A stretch of 14,354 bases of DNA from positions 1-14,354 of the forward strand of contig CBDDDG010000003.1 in assembly GCA_965226555.1 (NCBI GenBank), read 5' to 3'. Under the pieces are notes generated by a model. That model was not told where the DNA came from and did not search any database. It saw only the letters and a list, made by a program, of their open reading frames with translations. Source of the stretch: Salinispira sp. (GTDB taxonomy: Bacteria; Spirochaetota; Spirochaetia; DSM-27196; Salinispiraceae). Both the position numbers and the translations under genes were made by a program. Below, piece after piece: positions 497-13,313 of this stretch (position 1 is the stretch's first letter; each line of letters begins with the position of its first letter).

Positions 497-568
497 CTAT
501 AAAATAGGAGAATGATAAGCACAAAGAAAGCATTCCAAATGGGATATTAACCTGATCCCGAAGCATGG

Positions 569-612
569 CGACCAGCCCCGGATGCACAAACCTCCGACCA
601 GCCCGGACGCAT
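569..612. repeat. Short imperfect direct repeat CGACCAGCCC(C)GGAYGCA x2
   Basis: cgaccagccccggatgca at 569-586 and cgaccagcccggacgca at 596-612. Confidence 0.6.
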
Positions 613-748
613 CGCCAGGCCGAGCGGCAAAGTACTGTTCAAGAAAATCTGCGGTATTCTTTGCTGTGTTCTGTTCTCGGCGCGCGTAAAAATTGTTTAA
701 CATTTCGCGCCCCTCGCGGGCAGGGAGGTGGTGCACTTATGGTTGAAT

Positions 749-946
749 TCACCCTGTTGGATATTTGAAGCTTGCCGAACTAACGAATATATGTTTCTGA
801 TACTGTGGATTTTCCTTCTTTACCAGAGATTTATCGAACTGCACCTTGCCGTTGTAATGCCAAGGCGGATCGGCATAAATAATGTCATATTTCATACTCG
901 GAAGAGGCGGATACGGAAATCCATCTACCAATAACGTATTTTCCAT
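749..946 (-). pseudogene. Truncated MT-A70-family N6-adenine methyltransferase (N-terminal 65 aa only)
   Basis: KYDIIYADPPWHY catalytic motif followed by SASFKYPT, then a stop. None of the three frames downstream gives the expected LFMW/WGF continuation. GAGGA RBS upstream. Confidence 0.8.
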
Positions 947-1051: not shown

Positions 1052-2612
1052 TCATTGATAGGCAATAATCTCGTTATACCATGACGGAAAGGCTACAGCG
1101 TTCGGTTGTCCGCTGCCCACCTTGGACCTCAAAAACATATTGGTGACCGTTACTATATATTCATCATTTGCTGCATCGGTGTCACCCATATTATCTATGC
1201 CGCCATTTTCAAGCGTCCAATGATCCTTCCACTCCTCAAGATCCTGATTGAATGCGGTTGTATCACTGAACATAGATGTCATATCCGTTACCGAGCTGAC
1301 ATCCCAGCCGGAGATATCACCATTGAATGTGCTTGCAATAGTGAACATAGATGTCATATCCGTTACCGAACTGACATCCCAGCGTGAGATATCGCCATTG
1401 AATGTGCCTTTGTTACTGAATATACCTATCATATCTGTTACTGCGGTGGTAATAATGTAGTTGAAATTGCCAGTATCGCCCCAGTTTGATATCCCCGCAT
1501 TTACCGCTGTTTTCAGTTCAGCGTTAGTGGTAGGACTCTCAGTAACAAAGAAATATTCGGCAAACAGGATGGCATCTCCGGTTCCAGTACCATATACCAC
1601 ATATGTTCCTGCCGTTGTCTCCGCGCTAACCGTAAGCGTAATAAGTCCGCTGCTCGAATCGACAATCGGCGGGGTGACTCCAACGGGCGTAGCTGCGGAG
1701 GTGACCTTCGTAATGTCTCCATCAACGACCGTGATATTGCTTGCCCCCACCGTGGTCAAAGAAATGCTGAGCTCAGTGGCAATTTCAGGGGCAAGAGGGT
1801 TATCAATATCAGCCGGAACAATTGCGCTCGCTGACTCGCCCGCGGGAAGCTGCGTTGCAAAAAGCAACATTGCGGATGCAGACCATTCGCCCGCGCCTTG
1901 CGCGTTGACAGCGCGTACCTGTAGTTGGTAGTTGGCGCCGTCTGCCGTAATGCTGTGGATTGTGTAGGGAGAGTACGATGAGAAGGAAAAATGACAGACT
2001 TCTGCCTGCCCCTCGCTGTTTTCGCAGGCAATGCCGGAGCTAATGATCGTCCATGGCTCCGTGTCATCTGCGCGATATCGCAGCTCATACCCGGTAATGG
2101 GGCTGCCGCCATTATCGGTTGGCGCAGTCCATGTGGCAATGAGTAACCCATTGCCTGCTTCAAAGGTTGGAGCAGCTATTGTACCCGGCGCGGCAGGGGG
2201 CGCAGTTGGCGGCGCAATAGGTGTTGCCGTGGCAGATGCCGACCAGCCGCCGGTGCCCTGCGCGTTGACGGCGCGCACCTGCACGGCATAATTCATGCCG
2301 TTTGTCAGCTCGGTAATGGTGTGGCTTGTGGTAATACCGGTGTTAATCTCCATCCAGCTCTCGCTGCCGTCTTCCCGATAACGCAGGTGATATTCAGTAA
2401 TATCGTTGTTCGTGTTGTTCTCCCCCCACCCCCAATTCCATGTAGCAGGATCAACCCACGATGCGGTAAGCTGTTCGCTCCCCGCTGTGAGAGTTGGAGC
2501 AGACATGGTTGGCGGCGTAGTTATCATTGGACATCCAGAAATCAACGCAATAGCTATTGCGCAGAATGCGACAAGGGCTACCCCCCCCCCAACTGTATGA
2601 CGTAATTTTCAT
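1052..2612 (-). CDS. Surface lipoprotein with two fibronectin type III domains and BspA/DUF285-type repeats; frameshifted at a G10 tract in the signal peptide
   Basis: Two FN3 domains (LTASW...YHLRYR...YAVQVRAVNAQGTGGWS; LIATW...YELRYR...YQLQVRAVNAQGAGEWS) and C-terminal FNGDISxWDVSSVTDMTSMF repeats. AAGGAGG RBS precedes ATG at 2612. With G9 the frame reads MKITSYSWGGVALVAFCAIAIALISG-C (signal peptide and lipobox) and joins ORF 1052..2545, giving 519 aa. Confidence 0.85.
1245..1443 (-). repeat. 75-bp coding tandem repeat (25-aa DUF285/BspA unit), about 2.5 copies
   Basis: tgaacatagatgtcatatccgttaccga... starts at 1267 and 1342, with a degenerate third start at 1417. Confidence 0.9.
2581..2590 (-). 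repeat. Poly-G10 tract in codons 8-11 of the lipoprotein
   Basis: Ten consecutive C on the plus strand. G9 or G12 would be in frame; G10 is out of frame. Confidence 0.9.
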
Positions 2613-4863: not shown

Positions 4864-5433
4864 ATGCTAAAAGGCATACATCCTATTCTTTCTCCAGATG
4901 CCCTTCATGCCATTGCATCAATGGGACATGGAGATGAACTCCTTATCGCAGACGGAAATTATCCTGCTGCGGCAAAGGCAAAAAGATTGATCCGCTTTGA
5001 TGGGCACCCAATATCGCTCATTCTCGCGGGTCTTCTCGATCTTTTCCCCCTCGATTCTTTTATCGCACAGCCCATTATTCTTATGGACGTACCGGAGGAT
5101 GTTGAAAACCCGCCGGTCTGGGAAGAATACCGGAATATAATTACGAAAAAAGATGTACTTTTTTCCCGCTCAAACGCGCCGACTCCGGCTCCGGCAACCG
5201 CATCGGCGTTGACAAACGCGCCGACTCCGGCTCCGGCAGCCGCGCCGACTCCGGCAGCCGCTCTGGCAACAACGGGACGTTCCTGGGAAAACTCCGTGGA
5301 ACATCTTGAACGCTTTGCATTTTATAAACGGGCAGATAATTGCTTTGCCGTTTTCGCAAGCGGGGAAACAGCGCTTTATGCCAATATCATTCTGAAAAAG
5401 GGTGTTCTGAAAAAGGAAGATCTGGCACTGTGA
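4864..5433 (+). CDS. fucU: RbsD/FucU family L-fucose mutarotase with an Ala/Pro/Thr-rich insertion
   Basis: MLKGIHPILSP, MGHGDELLIADGNYP, ERFAFY and GETALYANIILKKGV motifs. AAGGAG RBS. Directly follows fucI. Confidence 0.92.
   Translation: MLKGIHPILSPDALHAIASMGHGDELLIADGNYPAAAKAKRLIRFDGHPISLILAGLLDLFPLDSFIAQPIILMDVPEDVENPPVWEEYRNIITKKDVLFSRSNAPTPAPATASALTNAPTPAPAAAPTPAAALATTGRSWENSVEHLERFAFYKRADNCFAVFASGETALYANIILKKGVLKKEDLAL
5171..5270 (+). repeat. In-frame 42-bp tandem repeat with sub-repeats inside fucU
   Basis: caaacgcgccgactccggctccggca at 5171 and 5213, plus a further gcgccgactccggcagccgc. Encodes NAPTPAPATASALTNAPTPAPAAAPTPAAALA. Confidence 0.88.
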
Positions 5434-6905
5434 AGTATATTGCGGTCGATCTGGGAGCGGGCAGCGGGAGGATTGTGGCAGGCACCCCCGCCTCGGAACC
5501 CCTCACCCCCGATCCGCTCAACTCCGATCCGCCTCCCGCCTCAGGCGGGGCAGACGATGGGCTGGACATTCTCTACCGCTTCACAACACCCTCGGTGGTT
5601 CTCCCCACGGGCATACACTGGGACATTGCCGCTATTTTCAATAACATAAAAAAGGGTCTCCGCGCGGCATTTCTGAAGTACGGCGATGAAATAGTCAGTA
5701 TTTCCGTAGATAGTTGGGGTGTCGATTATGGACTACTCGATGCTGGCTCCGAGCTTATTGGCCTTCCCTACCATTACCGCGACCAGCGAACCGATACTAT
5801 CATGGATGGGGTCTTTTCCATTATCTCCGAGCGGGATATCTACGAACGCACCGGCATACAGTTCATGCAGCTTAACACCCTGTTCCAACAGATCGCCTTT
5901 ATGAAATCTCACCCTGATCTGTTTTCCTGCGCCCGCTCCTATCTTTCCATTCCTGATCTGATCATCTACTGGCTCTGCGGGGAAATGACAAACGAACGCA
6001 CACATGCTTCAACAACCCAACTTTTTAGCCCGCACCAAAATACCTGGGATCGTGAGCTCATGGATATTCTCAAGCTGCCGAAAACTATTTTCCGGGAGAT
6101 AGTACCCTCAGGAACCCCGCTTGCACCGCTCCTCCCGCAGGTTCAGCAGGAAGTTGGGGCACCTGCTTCAGTACAGGTCATTGCCGGTGCCGGGCACGAT
6201 ACACAGGCAGCATCTTTCACCGTACCTGCCAGCGCAGACACCGCCTTCCTCAGCTGCGGAACCTGGTCGGTCATGGGTATTGAAAGCAGTACGGCCATCA
6301 TCAGCGACACGGGCTTTGCCTATTCGGCCTCAAACGAGGCAAGCGCGCGCGGCGGCTACAATCTTCTGAAAAACCTGCTCGGACTCTGGCTCCTGCAGGA
6401 ATGTAAGGCCGAGTGGGACGCCGAACACAGGGTTAGCGCAGCGGGCACAGGATCTGCAGCTCGTGCGGCTGGAACGGCGGGCGCCGCAGAATCCGATTAT
6501 GCAAAACTTATAGAACAGGCGCGCTGCGCAGATGCTCCCGAGAAGCTGATTGATGTCAACAATGATATATTTCTGAAATCGCGGCATCAGGCAGGTTCCA
6601 TGCAGGAACGAATCAACCGGCATCTTTCAGAGAAGGGCGCGCAGCCCTGTACCGAGCGCAGCCAGATAGTGCGGGTGATCATCGAAAGCCTCGCCGAACT
6701 GTACCGGAAGACCCTCAATGAACTTGAAGAAATAAGCGGACGGAAAATAACACGGCTCCACATTATCGGCGGCGGCGCGCAGAATGATCTTCTCTGTGAA
6801 CGCACCACAGAGCTGAGCGGACGGGAAGTTATTGTTGGGAATCCTGAAGCCACCGCCATCGGAAATATCAGCATTCAGCAGCAGACAATGCAGAAACTGG
6901 AATGA
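5430..6905 (+). CDS. FGGY-family rhamnulokinase-like sugar kinase, probably acting as L-fuculokinase
   Basis: AVDLGAGSGR, DSWGVDYGLLD, YRDQRT, GHDTQAA, FLSCGTWS, GGGAQN and EATAIGN motifs. The GTG start at 5430 overlaps the fucU stop (GTGA). Substrate is inferred from operon context. Confidence 0.9.
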   Translation: MKYIAVDLGAGSGRIVAGTPASEPLTPDPLNSDPPPASGGADDGLDILYRFTTPSVVLPTGIHWDIAAIFNNIKKGLRAAFLKYGDEIVSISVDSWGVDYGLLDAGSELIGLPYHYRDQRTDTIMDGVFSIISERDIYERTGIQFMQLNTLFQQIAFMKSHPDLFSCARSYLSIPDLIIYWLCGEMTNERTHASTTQLFSPHQNTWDRELMDILKLPKTIFREIVPSGTPLAPLLPQVQQEVGAPASVQVIAGAGHDTQAASFTVPASADTAFLSCGTWSVMGIESSTAIISDTGFAYSASNEASARGGYNLLKNLLGLWLLQECKAEWDAEHRVSAAGTGSAARAAGTAGAAESDYAKLIEQARCADAPEKLIDVNNDIFLKSRHQAGSMQERINRHLSEKGAQPCTERSQIVRVIIESLAELYRKTLNELEEISGRKITRLHIIGGGAQNDLLCERTTELSGREVIVGNPEATAIGNISIQQQTMQKLE

Positions 6906-6926: not shown

Positions 6927-8030
6927 TCACTTTATGGTTTTTGCATTACGACAATGTACTTCAGTAAGCCCTATTTGATACGAAGTGTAATTGATATCGG
7001 GCTGCCCCTGACGAGCATAATATGAAGAAAAACGCGCTAATACATCCTTTACAAACGAAGGTGAAATCTGAATTGAAGGCGCTTCGAATTGCTCATCAAT
7101 CTTTTCCTTTGGCAGTGTTGACAATTTTCTGAAATTCAAAAATCCGCCAGTGAAGGAATTAGTCTTAGGCAACCAGTGATAATATGCCGTATTGTTATTT
7201 CTGAATGCTTTTTCGAGTTCTTTTTTTGAGGGTTCGTTGGGAAATACCGTTTTACATGAATCTATTTCAGCAATGAGTATTCTATCTGTTTTAATACCGT
7301 TTTCGCCTCTTATTACAAGGTCGCAGGCCGGAGTCAAAACAACAAAGTAGTTTTCCTCTGTTTTCGATTTGATAATGCTGCCAGTGCGGATGCGGTTTGT
7401 ATGGGGTGGCGCCAAGTACATTTCTTCCGGGAAGTATCGATCTTCATCATTATCAAGAAGTTGAAGAAGGTGATTTAACGTATACCGAAGTAATGCTCTT
7501 TCTGTACGGAATGGATCAGTTTTACCGTAGACCACCCATATACCTTTCTGAGGAAGCAGATTTTTCAGAAATACCGTATTCAGCGCCTTTTCAATTTCAC
7601 CACGGCCTCCCATAATTTTCGTTAATCCGGTATTATAAATTTCCCAGAGCAGATCAAATATATGAACATATTCCGACCCAGGCTCTCCTTTCTTTAATAC
7701 TAATTCCCTGAGCAAATTACTCGATTCAACTGCATTAGGTGTACCAGTTAATATAACAACCGGAATTCGGAAACACGCATCTTCTATTTCCCTCACAACC
7801 TTATTTCCCGCATCCTTTTCATCTTCATTGCCGAGATTCAGATCGATAATAGCCCCATCGTATGTATTATTTAACTTATCGAAAGCGTCTGCCAAAGTTT
7901 TGCATGGCGTCAATTCAATATTCTTATTCTTATGTTCATCATTGTAACGGTCTATTGAATCCTCGCAGGTTTTAACATCTTCGTCATTATCTTCTACAAG
8001 CAGTAATTTGAAAGTACTCACCTCAGTCAT
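6927..8030 (-). CDS. Response regulator: N-terminal receiver domain, helical linker and uncharacterised C-terminal effector domain
   Basis: LLLVEDN acidic pocket, AIID63LNL phospho-acceptor, VILTG and LKKG give an intact receiver. The likely start is ATG 8030 (or GTG 8021), overlapping the kinase stop, rather than 8192. No HTH output domain is recognisable. Confidence 0.85.
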   Translation of the reverse strand: MTEVSTFKLLLVEDNDEDVKTCEDSIDRYNDEHKNKNIELTPCKTLADAFDKLNNTYDGAIIDLNLGNEDEKDAGNKVVREIEDACFRIPVVILTGTPNAVESSNLLRELVLKKGEPGSEYVHIFDLLWEIYNTGLTKIMGGRGEIEKALNTVFLKNLLPQKGIWVVYGKTDPFRTERALLRYTLNHLLQLLDNDEDRYFPEEMYLAPPHTNRIRTGSIIKSKTEENYFVVLTPACDLVIRGENGIKTDRILIAEIDSCKTVFPNEPSKKELEKAFRNNNTAYYHWLPKTNSFTGGFLNFRKLSTLPKEKIDEQFEAPSIQISPSFVKDVLARFSSYYARQGQPDINYTSYQIGLTEVHCRNAKTIK

Positions 8031-10188
8031 TCTCCATAATCGGTTGAAGTCTGAACCACACACCCTGCTCAGACTCAAGAGCTTTAAGCTCCATGCCATT
8101 TCGCATCGCAGCTTCTCCGGCAATTGCCAGTCCGAGTCCTGTTCCTGATGGTTTTGTGGAAAATTGAGGTTCAAAGATAACCTCACTGTCAATCAGAAAT
8201 TGTTCAATACCCGGTCCGGTATCACGATAGTCGATATGCAGAAGAGAATTATCGTCAGTTACAAGATCAATGATAATGTTCTTATCGCTTGTGCTTTTTT
8301 CATTCATCCAATACATACTGTTATCAACAAGGTTTGTGAAAATCGCATAGATGTCCTGCTGCCAAGCGGATAACTCAAAATTATCGGAACCGTTTACACT
8401 CACCGTTATGTTCTGAGCCTTCATTTCTTCTTCAAAAACTGACAAACTACCCAGAATAGTATCTTTCAGTAACAGCTGTTTCCTGGCAGAACGTTTCCCG
8501 GCTGCTAGGGGGTCAAGTCTGCTGAACAACTTCACAAAAACCTCCGCATTACTGCCAACTCCCTCAACTATGGGCATGCTTTTCTCCAATGTATTCCGCT
8601 CACCCGTTTCTCTGAATAATTTATACCAGTATTGAAGATTCGGAATCTGATTACGGAAAAAATTCAAAGGACGTCTGCCTTCATGAAGAATGACGTTTAT
8701 TATTTTTCCCAGAGTAGCCTGCCCCTGATAAATTGCAACTGCTTGGCGGATTTCATCAACAATTTTATTTCTATTTTCCGCATCCCGATTAATAATATCT
8801 GTGACTGTATTAATGGTTTCAGTATTAACGCCGCCTTTGGTAAGTGTAGATTTGACATTTTTTTTCAAACCGTCATATGCAAACATTTTCTCAAACTCAC
8901 GTTCAATTTTCGAAACAGGCCTACCTAATCCGGCTTTCTGCCTGAATTCAAAACGCCGACTTTCAAGCAGGGTAATTACGTCTTGTGTAATTTTTTTCAA
9001 CTTAGTAAAGGCGTCATTTTCACGGAGCCCATCTCGCGCGCTTTTTTCTATTAATCCGGACAGTTTTTCCGACTGTATCTCCACATATCCAATAACCTGA
9101 TTGCTGCCAATTCTTAGCGAAGGGTTCTGAACACGTTGCTCATTCAGTTTCAGCCAATCAAACTCAGCATCACCAAGAGGACGAATACGAAAACCGTTCC
9201 GATAAACGCCAATTCCGTTATATTCGTTAAGGAGCTGTCTCGCCTCCAGTTTTCCCACATAGTTTCCTGATTCATCTTTGAGACCTCTGGCAATAAGAGA
9301 TTCAATGGCTTCCTTTTCACGGTCATAAACACGAATATCAAAAACCAGATCGCCGCATCCGGTTGGACCATCATTATCAAACGGGATTTTCTCCTCTGTT
9401 GTGTTTCGGGCTTTCTGTAATCCATATTCCAGAACACCTCTGCCATCCGCATGTATTCTCCCCATTATTCTATAGTCAAATAACTCGAAAATGGGATATG
9501 GTTCTATGGTCTCGTCAATATCCTGAACTTTGGGAAATCCGCGTATCTTCATATGTATGCGAAAATCATCAGCGGTCTGCTGATCATTGGAAGAGATACT
9601 CACAGGAGGTACAAGCTTCTTAAGCTCAAACCGCAGTTTATTGAATTGTTTCTGATCCCATTCGGAAATGAGTTTCCTGCTGCCGGATATAATTAATCGT
9701 GTGCCGGATGCTTCATTGACATCAGAAGTTTCAATTAATATTTCCACATCATCCAGATACTGAGCAGCCTCAAATGCCTGCCATTCGACCAGAACCGTGG
9801 TTTTCTTTCCTCCGGACGTTACGGTCTCAAGCAACAGATCCTCACCTAATAGTGAAGCAGCATATCGGCCAATTCCCTTACGCCCCTGCATGGTTCTCCC
9901 CGAAGGGCTTTTGTTTTGGTCAAGCTTGTATCGGGTAGATGGCACCATCCACTTGCCGGCAACATCATCCCGCGACATGCCATGCCCATGGTCGCTTATC
10001 GTAATAGTATATGTCTGATCTGTCTTTGCGGAGAAATCAATACATACATCAGGAGAATCGGCATCGTAGGCATTCTTTACCAGCTCCACAACAGCAGCAT
10101 AAGAATCTTGTATGAGGTCTCGGCCAATAGTCAAAATATGTCTGCCGGCCGGCCTTATTCTATATGATCCGCTCATATTCACTGCCAT
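8023..10188 (-). CDS. MORC/MutL-like GHKL ATPase fused to a C-terminal histidine kinase (HisKA-like plus HATPase_c); soluble
   Basis: N-terminal GHKL motifs ELVKNAYDA, DHGHGM, GRKGIGR and GTRL. Middle domain VYRNGFRIRPLG...IGYV...SARDGL. H-box ILH502EGRRPL, N-box NLVDNS, G1 DTGPGI, F/G2 IFEPQFSTKPSGTGLGLAIA. No hydrophobic transmembrane stretch. Confidence 0.9.
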   Translation of the reverse strand: MAVNMSGSYRIRPAGRHILTIGRDLIQDSYAAVVELVKNAYDADSPDVCIDFSAKTDQTYTITISDHGHGMSRDDVAGKWMVPSTRYKLDQNKSPSGRTMQGRKGIGRYAASLLGEDLLLETVTSGGKKTTVLVEWQAFEAAQYLDDVEILIETSDVNEASGTRLIISGSRKLISEWDQKQFNKLRFELKKLVPPVSISSNDQQTADDFRIHMKIRGFPKVQDIDETIEPYPIFELFDYRIMGRIHADGRGVLEYGLQKARNTTEEKIPFDNDGPTGCGDLVFDIRVYDREKEAIESLIARGLKDESGNYVGKLEARQLLNEYNGIGVYRNGFRIRPLGDAEFDWLKLNEQRVQNPSLRIGSNQVIGYVEIQSEKLSGLIEKSARDGLRENDAFTKLKKITQDVITLLESRRFEFRQKAGLGRPVSKIEREFEKMFAYDGLKKNVKSTLTKGGVNTETINTVTDIINRDAENRNKIVDEIRQAVAIYQGQATLGKIINVILHEGRRPLNFFRNQIPNLQYWYKLFRETGERNTLEKSMPIVEGVGSNAEVFVKLFSRLDPLAAGKRSARKQLLLKDTILGSLSVFEEEMKAQNITVSVNGSDNFELSAWQQDIYAIFTNLVDNSMYWMNEKSTSDKNIIIDLVTDDNSLLHIDYRDTGPGIEQFLIDSEVIFEPQFSTKPSGTGLGLAIAGEAAMRNGMELKALESEQGVWFRLQPIMEND

Positions 10189-11441
10189 ACCTCCATCAAT
10201 TTATTTGCAATCTTCCCTGCCAACAGAACCGGTACAGCATTCCCTATTTGCCTGAAAGCTGGTGTTCTTTTCGGTGGTCCTACAGAACTCTCAAAGAAAT
10301 AATCGTCAGGAAATGTCTGCAATCGCGCTGCCTCCCGCGGCGTAATTGATCGGTTCTGTTGAATATCAGGATGAATATAATAATGCCCATCACGCGCAAT
10401 ATGCGCAACAACAGTATGAGAATATGGCAAATTAGAAGCAACCACCTTAAAACGGTCAAGAAAAGAATTGCAGTTATTATGAGTTTTTAGCCGTTTCGGC
10501 AGGGAATTATAATTAAGCCGAGTTTTTCCAGTGTTCCAGCGTTCAACAACCAGATGATAAATTTCACGATCCTGATCTGTATGGGGTCTTGCCTGGTGCC
10601 ATGTTACCGGAAGAGTTTCATTCCTAATTTCTGCATTATGCTGCCATGTCCCTTCATATTTTTTTGTTTGGCAGGGGCCGGCACCGCCTTCTCCTGCAAC
10701 AATTTCCGGAAGATCACAAAGAGCATCATCCACTGTTGCCTTCGAATTCCATTTTTCAGGTTCCGGATAAAAACCGGCGGAATTACCCCGCCTCCCTACA
10801 AGAATGATTCTTTTACGTCTTTGCAAGACCCCGTATTCTTCCGCGGAGAGGGTTCTGTATTCTGTCTCATACCCGCATTTCTGAAAAAGCTCTCTCATTT
10901 TGTCAAAATAGAATTGATCATCAGAATCTTTTGCGGAAAGTAACCCTGTTACATTTTCAAATACAAAATATGAAGGTTGATATCGCCTGAGAAACTCTGC
11001 GTAATGAATATACAAATAGTTTCTTTTATCGCCTTTCATATTATTGCGGTCACGAGACCTGCCGACAAGAGAATATGCCTGACAGGGAGGTCCCCCGATA
11101 ATAAGGTCAAGTTTCTGATCTCTCAACATCGCATCGACTTTCCGAAATATTTCTGATAATGATTTTTCGTTGATCTCCGCATGTATTACAGATTCAATCA
11201 CTCTGTCCGGAATCTGATTATAGAATTCCGAACGTGTCAGTTGATCATTCAGATAATCAGCATATATATCTATTCTGTCGTGCCTTTTCAGCCAGTGATA
11301 TGCCATTCGGGTTCGCAGAGTAAAACAAGCTGCGCTGTCCAATTCAACATGGGCTATCGGTTCAAAACCGGCGCGTATGAACCCTTCGGATAAACCACCA
11401 GCCCCAGCAAACAGATCAATATACTTCAGAGATTTCTTCAT
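10179..11441 (-). CDS. DNA (cytosine-5)-methyltransferase
   Basis: Motif I DLFAGAGG, IV GGPPCQAYS, VI FENVTGL, VIII QRRKRI, IX RSITPREAARLQTFPD and X RQIGNAVP. GGAG RBS. The 3' end overlaps the ATPase/kinase start. Confidence 0.96.
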   Translation of the reverse strand: MKKSLKYIDLFAGAGGLSEGFIRAGFEPIAHVELDSAACFTLRTRMAYHWLKRHDRIDIYADYLNDQLTRSEFYNQIPDRVIESVIHAEINEKSLSEIFRKVDAMLRDQKLDLIIGGPPCQAYSLVGRSRDRNNMKGDKRNYLYIHYAEFLRRYQPSYFVFENVTGLLSAKDSDDQFYFDKMRELFQKCGYETEYRTLSAEEYGVLQRRKRIILVGRRGNSAGFYPEPEKWNSKATVDDALCDLPEIVAGEGGAGPCQTKKYEGTWQHNAEIRNETLPVTWHQARPHTDQDREIYHLVVERWNTGKTRLNYNSLPKRLKTHNNCNSFLDRFKVVASNLPYSHTVVAHIARDGHYYIHPDIQQNRSITPREAARLQTFPDDYFFESSVGPPKRTPAFRQIGNAVPVLLAGKIANKLMEVWQ

Positions 11442-11575: not shown

Positions 11576-13027
11576 TCAACATGGCAACAAACCATTCGAA
11601 TAAGCAGCCCGCTGAAGCCGATCTCGCAGCGCCGCAGTGTCTGTTGCCGCTATCTCCGCTGCCCCCCCAATGTCCGTTGCCGCTATCTCCGCTGCCCCCC
11701 CAGTGTCCGCCGCTATCTCCGCGGTCTCCGGCGGCAGCCATGCCAGAATTACTGAAGCAGCAGAGCGATCTATCGCCGAGCAGCCCCCGATCGCAGCGCC
11801 ACCTTCTATCGTAGCGTCGCCCCCGATCGCCGCGCCGCCTTCTATCGTAGCGCCGCCTTCTATCGCCGAGCGGTCTATCTCATAAAAAATCCGGTACAAA
11901 TTCCGCGCATAATCTGCCGTACTTTTTATCCGAATTATCTGTCTCCTGCTCCTGCCGACAGCAGACTCGGCAACATCATGCATATCCCTCAGATTATTCG
12001 GATATCCCCGTTGTACAGCCTCATGGACTGACCGCTGTACTGCCGTCTTCTTTTCCGATCTATTTTGCGAATAATCGCTGCTGTGAAAGTTCACGGTGAA
12101 TGCAGGATCGGGGACAATGAGCCAGACCTGCCCCTTCCCTTCGGCCGCGCTCAGGGCATTCCAAAGTTCATCAACATTCTGATACAACTTCAGCGGGGTG
12201 CGGGGCGCGTAATGGCGGTAGCGGGTGCCCGGAGCGGGGACATGATCGGCGGGGATAGGACCGGTGGGCGCGGTCAGGGGAGCGGTTTTTTCGAGCTGCC
12301 GGAGACCAGAGCTCTTCAGCGCGCGGTTGATCATCGCAGAGCTAATGCTGCCCGGCCGCAAAATGCGCGGGCATCCCTGACTGCCGCAGTAGACAATGGT
12401 CGATTCCAGTCCCAGCTCGCAGGATGGGCCTTCGATGATGGCGGCAACGTTTCCGTTCATTTCATGCCAGGCCATGTCGAAGGTTGTCGGACTCGGGCGG
12501 CCGGAACGGTTAGCCGAGGGAGCGGCGATGCCCGCGTCCGCGCCGGCAATAAGCGCTTGGGCGATGGATGATGACGGAATGCGCAGCGCAATGGTATTGT
12601 GTCCCGCAGCGGCGGCAGGAGCCCTGTGTGGCCGGCGATTCACGATGAGCGTGAGGGGACCCGGGCTGAAGGCTTCGAAAAGGCAGCAGGCGATATCCGG
12701 CATATCCGCAGCATAATCGGCAGCCATCCTCCGATCCGCAACATGAACAATGAGCGGATTATCCGCAGGACGCCCCTTCACCCTAAATATTTTTTGCACC
12801 GCGGCATCATCATCTGCCATAGCACCGAGACCATAGACCGTTTCAGTTGGGAATATAACAAGTTCACCTTCACGCAGAAGCTGCCCCGCTCTTTCAAGAT
12901 CATCGGCAGTGAGGCGGAGGGTCGTCTGCGCTGCTCCGCCAGCGGTGCCCGCATTGGCAACGGTGCCCGCATTGGCAGCGCCAGCGGCGGTGCCGCCAGC
13001 ATCAGGTGTGAATGAAGATTTTTCCAT
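11576..13027 (-). CDS. sua5: L-threonylcarbamoyladenylate synthase (Sua5-type TsaC) with several low-complexity insertions
   Basis: FPTETVYGLGA, KGRPADNPLIVH, PGPLTLI, APSANRSGRPSPT, GLESTIV, ILRPG and the Sua5 linker PGTRYRHYAP, with a C-terminal YARNLYRIF...LRDRLQRAA. ATG 13027 is preferred to TTG 13033. Confidence 0.93.
   Translation of the reverse strand: MEKSSFTPDAGGTAAGAANAGTVANAGTAGGAAQTTLRLTADDLERAGQLLREGELVIFPTETVYGLGAMADDDAAVQKIFRVKGRPADNPLIVHVADRRMAADYAADMPDIACCLFEAFSPGPLTLIVNRRPHRAPAAAAGHNTIALRIPSSSIAQALIAGADAGIAAPSANRSGRPSPTTFDMAWHEMNGNVAAIIEGPSCELGLESTIVYCGSQGCPRILRPGSISSAMINRALKSSGLRQLEKTAPLTAPTGPIPADHVPAPGTRYRHYAPRTPLKLYQNVDELWNALSAAEGKGQVWLIVPDPAFTVNFHSSDYSQNRSEKKTAVQRSVHEAVQRGYPNNLRDMHDVAESAVGRSRRQIIRIKSTADYARNLYRIFYEIDRSAIEGGATIEGGAAIGGDATIEGGAAIGGCSAIDRSAASVILAWLPPETAEIAADTGGAAEIAATDIGGAAEIAATDTAALRDRLQRAAYSNGLLPC
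11636..11722 (-). repeat. 33-bp in-frame tandem repeat in sua5 (about 2.6 copies)
   Basis: artgtcygttgccgctatctccgctgccccccc units start at 11636 and 11669, with a partial unit at 11702. Encodes GGAAEIAATD[IT]. Confidence 0.9.
11780..11870 (-). repeat. 18-bp in-frame tandem repeat in sua5 (about 5 copies)
   Basis: Encodes AIEGGA-TIEGGA-AIGGDA-TIEGGA-AIGGCS. Repeated gccgccttctatcg and cccccgatcgc words. Confidence 0.88.
12941..12998 (-). repeat. 18-bp in-frame repeat in the N-terminal extension of sua5
   Basis: cggtgcccgcattggca occurs twice with an 18-bp period. Encodes ANAGTV-ANAGTA within a G/A/T-rich leader. Confidence 0.85.
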
Positions 13028-13313
13028 TTTCAACCTTTACCTCATAGGTTTTGAGGTTTTCGGTTGCGGGGAGATCAATAACCGCGCCGTTTCTAATGTC
13101 AAAACGGCTGCCGTGCTTTTCGCAGAACACCTTTCCGTCCATGACAATTCCCTGACACAGCGGGCTATGCTCATGGGAGCATGAACCCTGCGTGCAATAC
13201 ACGCCATCTTCCAGTTTGAAGAGGGTATATCGGCGCCGTCCGACAATGACTTCACGGGAAATGTTGAAACTGTCAATGGAAGCAACTTCCTTCCACCCAT
13301 GGTTTTTTTGCAA
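13002..13313 (-). CDS. Rieske-type [2Fe-2S] ferredoxin (Suf-associated)
   Basis: CSH...CEKHGSRFDIRNG Rieske ligands and LPATENLKTYEVKVENG. The start is uncertain: TTG 13313, or ATG 13323 if the A7 run at 13303-13309 is miscalled. Confidence 0.9.
   Translation of the reverse strand: MQKNHGWKEVASIDSFNISREVIVGRRRYTLFKLEDGVYCTQGSCSHEHSPLCQGIVMDGKVFCEKHGSRFDIRNGAVIDLPATENLKTYEVKVENGKIFIHT

Follow-up and report, generated by a model that had tools for sequence, protein, structure and literature searches.

A kinase and receiver pair encoded in one operon with a DNA methyltransferase raises the question of what its phosphorelay switches. Pairs of HEF_HK (PF19191) and Response_reg_2 (PF19192) proteins beside C5 methylases were described by Bellieny-Rabelo et al. 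2021 (PMC8011034), and methylase-linked cassettes of MORC-type kinases and receivers have been known since that year with no identified output; the accessible text of that study gives no further known domain for the receiver proteins, nor does it assign them an output. We analyzed a window of 14,354 nucleotides (the whole stretch of DNA under study) from Salinispira sp., in which a methylase, a kinase and a receiver fused to a C-terminal domain are encoded together (Table 1).

The cassette and its surroundings

The three genes form an operon on the minus strand, in the order methylase, kinase and receiver-effector, and lie between sua5 and a convergent gene for an FGGY sugar kinase. The methylase gene adjoins the kinase gene on the start side, the two overlapping by 10 bp, and the receiver-effector ATG at 8030 overlaps the kinase stop (8 bp shared). 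The top PADLOC model for the methylase (10179-11441) is DISARM DrmMII (E 2e-168). The GC content of the island is 0.418 compared with 0.531 and 0.552 in the flanks, and a profile search finds the C-terminal domain in 0 of 40 related genomes, so the island probably arrived by lateral transfer. No nuclease or Vsr gene is present within the 14,354-nt window, and neither Vsr nor PemK/PF02452 genes were found in the organism's own genome (assembly 93.5% complete). The methylase of the window is without a Vsr partner in the assembly, compared with Vsr in 44/80 related loci.

Table 1. Features of the cassette in the 14,354-nt window.
Feature	Position	Strand	Basis or conservation
C5 cytosine DNA methyltransferase, 420 aa, operon gene 1	10179..11441	-	Pfam PF00145, E 9e-58
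Soluble paraMORC-like GHKL ATPase fused to histidine kinase, 721 aa	8023..10188	-	Pfam, residue conservation
Receiver-effector protein, 367 aa (receiver, helical linker, barrel)	6927..8030	-	ORF, model, relatives
Receiver domain, residues 5-135; E13, D14, D63 (7842-7844), T95, K114	7626..8018	-	Structure matches, conservation
Two-helix linker, residues 144-193; conserved W165, E177, R182, H187	7452..7601	-	Model secondary structure, conservation
Predicted MazF/CcdB-fold barrel, residues ~212-345, short beta1-beta2 hairpin	6996..7397	-	Predicted model, Foldseek, VIA
Cys236-Asp237, motif right after strand 2	7320..7325	-	C 126/126, D 124/126
Arg340-Gln341-Gly342, terminal helix end	7005..7013	-	R and G 126/126

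Elsewhere in the window, the product of a gene at 1052-2545 (minus strand) is of surface type and combines DUF285 (BspA-like) repeats with two fibronectin III domains, and short frames at the left end (497-946, minus strand) resemble a fragmented methyltransferase with a YADPPW motif, presumably of the MT-A70 type. Sua5 (11576-13033, minus strand) and the FGGY kinase (5340-6905, plus strand) contain low-complexity Ala/Gly/Pro-rich insertions that are atypical for such enzymes; the product of 4864-5433 (plus strand), which we take to be fucose-mutarotase-like, carries low-complexity Ala/Gly/Pro-rich repeat insertions, also atypical for an enzyme.

The receiver-effector protein and its phosphorelay

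A preliminary description of this DNA had likened the C-terminal domain to the PemK/MazF barrel on the strength of a series of short motifs. All of them lie in the minus-strand ORF 6927-8030, at residues 214-345 of 367: IRTGSII (214-220), YFVVLTPACDL (228-238), ILIAEI (251-256), YYHWLP (283-288), GGFLNFRKLSTL (295-306) and IQISP...RQGQPD (320-345). The gene is real and conserved: a search at E ≤ 0.001 finds 1,349 related proteins, and at 50% identity there are 1,412 clusters. The 367-aa protein has no Pfam or PADLOC match, and its NCBIfam receiver matches are sub-threshold only.

The receiver matches known receiver domains by structure (Z up to 15.4), and Foldseek agrees. In a set of 126 diverse relatives at 32-50% identity, D63, named in the preliminary description, occupies the receiver aspartate position and is invariant (126/126); E13 is kept as well, and D14 is conserved in 99%, T95 in 87% (S 11%) and K114 in 74% (R 23%). 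The kinase contains the Pfam domains HATPase_c_3 (residues 31-143) and HATPase_c (611-714), and its His502-Glu503 (codon 8683-8685) and N, G1, F and G2 boxes are at least 95% conserved among 67 sequences. To judge from these alignments, the phosphorelay that a phosphorylation-gated output presupposes appears intact, the kinase His and ATP-lid boxes and the receiver Asp, Thr and Lys all being conserved.

Predicted fold of the output domain

In the full-length model (pLDDT 85.5), the receiver (5-135) is followed by two helices (144-193) and then by a beta-rich domain. Because receiver matches filled the fold searches made with the full-length model, we modelled the barrel on its own (residues 200-350, 68 sequences; pLDDT 91.2, pTM 0.87). 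All 31 Foldseek matches listed for the barrel model are toxins of toxin-antitoxin systems (MazF/PemK/CcdB/ToxN group; 8-15% identity), with CptN (E 1e-4) ranked ahead of E. coli MazF (E 8.5e-4), and its best viral match is a PemK protein; YdcE and rows titled only 'toxin' are assumed here to be MazF/PemK proteins. In a VIA comparison with 48,161 chains, the 15 best matches are MazF, PemK, Kid, CcdB and type III toxins (Z 10.6-5.4), with MazF at Z 10.6 (3.1 A, 104 residues), MazF-mt3 at Z 10.6, CcdB at Z 10.0 (2.6 A, 95/95 residues), Kid at Z 9.2, CptN at Z 8.2 and three type III toxins at Z 6.2-5.4. Unrelated SH3-like folds start at Z 4.0, below the 5.4 of the toxin group.

The toxin-like topology predicted for the barrel is not due to chance, and in the model MazF and CcdB are tied as its nearest structures. 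The proposed PemK/MazF-like barrel is thus upheld as a predicted fold: the top Foldseek and VIA matches are MazF/PemK/CcdB-type toxins. A transcription-factor output, against which the preliminary description had also spoken, was rejected because a helix-turn-helix is absent from the model and from the matches listed.

Sequence comparisons give no family name. Pfam, PADLOC and NCBIfam hold no family for the barrel domain or its stand-alone relative, PF02452 matches 0/68 barrel sequences with PF01845 also unmatched, and sequence searches of solved structures returned receiver domains or noise only. ESM Atlas matches are unnamed clusters only (118-199 aa, at 0.89-0.91). When the barrel profile was compared with 28 PemK and with 7 closely related CcdB sequences, no significant alignment resulted (0.1-0.5% probability), so the case for homology to the MazF/PemK/CcdB toxins is a structural one only.

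With MazF/PemK/Kid (PF02452) the domain shares a predicted SH3-like barrel with a terminal helix (Z 8.5-10.6, rmsd 2.6-3.6 A, 92-105 residues). It differs from them in its 9-16% identity, its lack of a Pfam match, a helical insertion, the fusion to a receiver and an operon with no MazE-like antitoxin gene. The type III toxins CptN, ToxN and AbiQ match in fold at Z 5.4-8.2, and what lies upstream of the barrel gene is the overlapping kinase gene.

Conserved residues mark a site other than that of MazF

The preliminary description had gone on to suggest a MazF-type endoribonuclease, and this part is not supported: the catalytic Arg and Thr are not conserved at the equivalent places, and the conservation lies on a different face. 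The catalytic residues of EcMazF/PemK are Arg29/Arg25 and Thr52/Thr48 in the accessible text of PMC8887465 and PMC11394972. By equivalences with MazF and CcdB drawn from secondary structure, VIA ranges and a profile alignment below significance (probability 0.5%), not from coordinates, the Arg-Pro before strand 2 occurs in 2/126 barrel relatives and 0/55 stand-alone proteins (described below), positions 227-228 being variable. Among 28 PemK-family controls, 27 have the Arg, and the Thr position holds T in 23 and S in 4. The Thr-equivalent D257 is E in 62, D in 28, Q in 11 and K in 4 of 126 relatives, with Glu or Asp in 90, and the beta1-beta2 loop is ~9 residues shorter in the barrel than in MazF/PemK.

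We weighed an endoribonuclease whose catalytic residues have been relocated, for example to K247, H285 and R301, as between Kid and MazF. Judged by title or protein family, all but one of the 15 leading structural matches are RNase toxins, and the top Foldseek match is CptN. Catalytic residues do vary in this family, Kid using Arg73, His17 and Asp75 (accessible text of PMC8887465), and in the near family H285 (116/126), K247 (89/126) and R301 (97/126) are conserved. The sister families (Response_reg_2 and stand-alone) nevertheless keep neither H285 nor R301, the strongest conservation lies elsewhere, and the domain lacks the Arg/Thr pair as well as the long beta1-beta2 loop, which makes this reading improbable.

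The invariant barrel residues in the 126 relatives are G217, P234, C236, D237 (124/126), R340, G342 and P344. By VIA ranges, residue 341 of the barrel model aligns with CcdB residue 101, placing R340-Q341 level with the CcdB C-terminus. The gyrase-contacting residues of CcdB include S22, I24, N95, W99, G100 and I101, which line one groove (accessible text of PMC5062330). The invariant segments of the barrel correspond in the model to these gyrase-contacting segments, so the conservation would mark a CcdB-type face and not an RNase site. The terminal helix of MazF-mt3 is hydrogen-bonded at its end to Ser32/Tyr35 of the partner subunit (accessible text of PMC11394972); because that helix end contacts the partner's segment, the Cys-Asp and Arg-x-Gly segments of the barrel can meet across a dimer. 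The Asp237-Arg340 pair could simply staple the dimer, and the invariant residues may be structural.

The likeness to CcdB (PF01845) brings forward a second alternative, in which the barrel is a non-catalytic protein-binding module whose CcdB-like groove, on phosphorylation, binds and switches a partner or poisons a host enzyme as CcdB poisons gyrase. Within the cassette, that partner would be the MORC ATPase or the methylase; outside it, an HNH or type I/III restriction enzyme nearby or, in the stand-alone form, a helicase. CcdB, a non-enzymatic binder, is one of the joint nearest structures, and the alignment covers it from end to end (Z 10.0, 95/95); it too is without the MazF catalytic pair, and the conserved barrel residues map onto its binding face. 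The barrel nonetheless has Arg-Gln-Gly-Gln-Pro in place of the terminal Trp-Gly-Ile of CcdB, its RQGQPD chain runs past CcdB residue 101, and it differs further in an invariant Cys, in the lack of CcdA and in giving no sequence signal (hhalign 0.3%). Cys-Asp and Arg-x-Gly also persist with unrelated partners at 13-21% identity, and the cassette of the window contains no nuclease to switch. We regard a pure binding role as rather unlikely.

Sister families of the barrel

The barrel profile gave three strong and three weak matches (E about 1e-3) in 301 genomes, and 3/3 weak matches lie in frames carrying Pfam Response_reg_2, a domain above cut-off in just 9 of the 301. The Response_reg_2 C-terminal domain aligns to the barrel (hhalign 96%, E 3e-9), and of the 9 proteins, one is incomplete because its contig stops, while the other 8 carry G-x-I, C-D and R-x-G at their ends (C-D 8/8, R 7/8, G 8/8). 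HEF_HK/Response_reg_2 loci resemble the present cassette in combining a methylase, a GHKL-DHp-HATPase kinase with His-Glu and a receiver gene in one operon, often with Vsr, and in a C-terminal domain homologous to the barrel. They differ in that their receiver proteins have ~600 aa compared with 367 aa here, and in that the kinase and receiver protein of the window miss PF19191/PF19192 at E ≤ 0.1. By the common C-terminal domain, the 367-aa protein belongs to a shorter sister family of Response_reg_2.

A broader barrel profile matched in 15/401 genomes, and one match is a 258-aa protein without a receiver. The family of this protein aligns over the whole barrel (90% in a first comparison; 96.8%, E 2e-10, 153 columns in a later one). 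It keeps the G, C-D and R-x-G motifs in 35/35 and then 55/55 distinct sequences, a set found and filtered partly by those motifs. Cys-Asp and Arg-x-Gly are thus kept across sister families at 13-21% identity.

The stand-alone barrel gene is followed by a gene for a ~760-aa UvrD-like helicase in 65/73 loci by cluster count (64 in maps), several of the 73 being near-duplicates; for the other 9 loci, 7 end at a contig edge and 2 have a truncated barrel gene. Plasmids also carry the pair: there are 79 matching records, of which 71 come from Escherichia; in the one inspected, the helicase lies 1 bp downstream. The cassette, which has no methylase, is a strong candidate for an undescribed two-gene defence system, as far as gene content and sequence indicate. 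Examples are L163:6514-9571, L169-L240 and L241:4010-7052, with a barrel protein of 260-320 aa and a helicase with Walker A. The pair often stands beside integrases and occurs on E. coli pColV-type plasmids.

Gene content of related loci

Among the 80 best of 132 genomic loci, many on truncated contigs, the receiver-effector gene has a kinase partner in 74, a methylase in 56, Vsr in 44 and an HNH gene in 5. Type I/III restriction genes are frequent neighbours in the same 80 loci, one cluster being confirmed by Pfam; some of these labels are presumptive and follow from characteristic motifs. Neither a constant restriction nuclease of the cassette nor a conserved small antitoxin-like gene was found across the 80. 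A relative is present in 46 plasmid records, of which 41 are Campylobacter. On Campylobacter pTet conjugative plasmids (L166:3810-8240; 41 records match), the kinase and receiver genes are accompanied by a convergent dcm. At the DNA level, the Yersinia receiver gene had no match in E. coli genomes.

Some loci depart from the usual arrangement. The kinase is broken and the receiver gene intact in L003 (frameshift) and L078 (insertion), where assembly error is possible; this combination fits an unphosphorylated form that is harmless and a switch turned on by phosphorylation. L029 was rejected as a kinase-broken locus, the stop lying upstream of the start and a 723-aa frame being present, and the receiver of L073, thought broken, proved intact. 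Open, motif-intact barrels without receiver or kinase occur at L059:3045-3731 and, in a complete genome, at L067:7998-8681; these remnants argue against a freely toxic barrel, unless they are unexpressed or monomeric.

Other genes take up positions near the kinase. A ~250-aa HNH_2 nuclease gene lies just upstream of the kinase or nearby in L014, L015, L034, L051 and L067, in some of which it stands where an intact methylase is expected. In L032, L041, L045 and L057, all within type I restriction clusters, a ~500-aa TIR/SEFIR gene directly upstream of the kinase replaces the methylase.

These counts bear on a third alternative, a selfish or regulatory methylation module with no anti-phage toxicity, in which the barrel is merely a dimerisation domain. 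Methylase (56/80) and Vsr (44/80) are indeed regular companions in the 80 best loci, receiver-less remnants are tolerated, and signalling to R-M systems is what the 2021 paper proposes in its accessible text (PMC8011034). A bare dimerisation domain would, however, leave the phosphorelay with no output, and the same barrel occurs in the separate two-gene helicase cassette with no methylase. We consider this reading improbable as well.

Comparison with phosphorelay defence systems

Two anti-phage systems use related logic. In the accessible text on Ambrosia (bioRxiv 10.1101/2025.09.30.679545, van den Berg et al.), a kinase of the same type is described, defence needs the receiver Asp and a separate HNH nuclease, and the receiver protein AbrC is reported with a winged helix. 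Ambrosia likewise places a methylase, a HATPase kinase and a receiver in one anti-phage operon. It differs, on the same text, in having five genes, including an N6-adenine methylase, an XRE regulator and the HNH nuclease, compared with three here, a C5 methylase and no nuclease; the winged helix of AbrC has no counterpart in the present cassette. HNH genes are also common beside Response_reg_2 genes (accessible text of PMC8011034). Together with the HNH requirement of Ambrosia and the loci in type I/III restriction clusters, this suggests that the barrel may be an adaptor, as the protein-binding alternative would have it.

In Detocs (Rousset et al., bioRxiv 10.1101/2023.01.24.525353), a receiver fused to a toxic enzyme defends against phage, according to the accessible text. 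By analogy, the present cassette would share its logic of a kinase acting on a receiver-fused effector. The systems differ in components: as described there, Detocs has a TPR sensor, PNP or other effectors, a buffer receiver DtcB and no methylase, whereas the present cassette has a MORC-like GHKL sensor, one receiver gene, no DtcB-like buffer and an output of predicted MazF/CcdB fold. By their defining features, the protein and its cassette are not members of Detocs, Ambrosia, PemK or CcdB.

Proposed mechanism and meaning

In the preliminary description the domain was to supply the missing effector of the island, and the cassette in the window indeed holds no other effector candidate. On the structural model, the output end is likely an uncharacterised, switchable anti-phage effector and not an ordinary gene regulator. 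The context is defence-like, as suggested by the low GC of the island, its domain in 0/40 related genomes, the 46 plasmid records, the lack of a nuclease in the window and HNH in only 5/80 loci. We propose tentatively, at a little short of an even chance, that the modelled barrel serves a mobile defence cassette of methylase, kinase and receiver as its toxic effector, gated by phosphorylation and acting via Cys-Asp and Arg-x-Gly and not via the MazF residues.

Under this proposal, the MORC-like ATPase would sense a phage product or else foreign DNA, self DNA being marked by the methylase, and phosphate would pass from His502 to Asp63. Receiver domains dimerise, and dimerisation here would pair two barrels as a MazF/CcdB-type dimer, in which Cys236-Asp237 from one barrel could join Arg340 from its partner in a composite site within the equivalent of CcdB's gyrase groove. 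We take the Cys-Asp/Arg triad as catalytic because it is unchanged while the partners change (kinase vs helicase); the chemistry would most likely involve a Cys nucleophile with an Arg-bound phosphate. The target may be a nucleic acid, a nucleotide or a DNA-processing protein, with growth arrest as the outcome, and the activated barrel would harm the infected cell or the invading DNA.

A broader version is less likely than not: a cysteine-based, so far undescribed enzymatic branch of the MazF/CcdB superfamily may be the common effector of two or more widespread families of anti-phage systems, the MORC-kinase/receiver and barrel-UvrD ones, the receiver form standing by methylases and switched from His to Asp, and the helicase form residing on integrative elements and E. 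coli plasmids.

A search within openly accessible papers turned up no account of the barrel domain or of the helicase pair. With the output now assigned to a predicted MazF/CcdB fold, the residues of its site named and a receiver-less helicase form found, the proposal is testable by point mutants. If true, it would be the first use of this fold under phosphorylation control instead of an antitoxin, within the literature searched, and if the site is catalytic, it would add a third activity to a fold known from RNA cleavage and gyrase poisoning.
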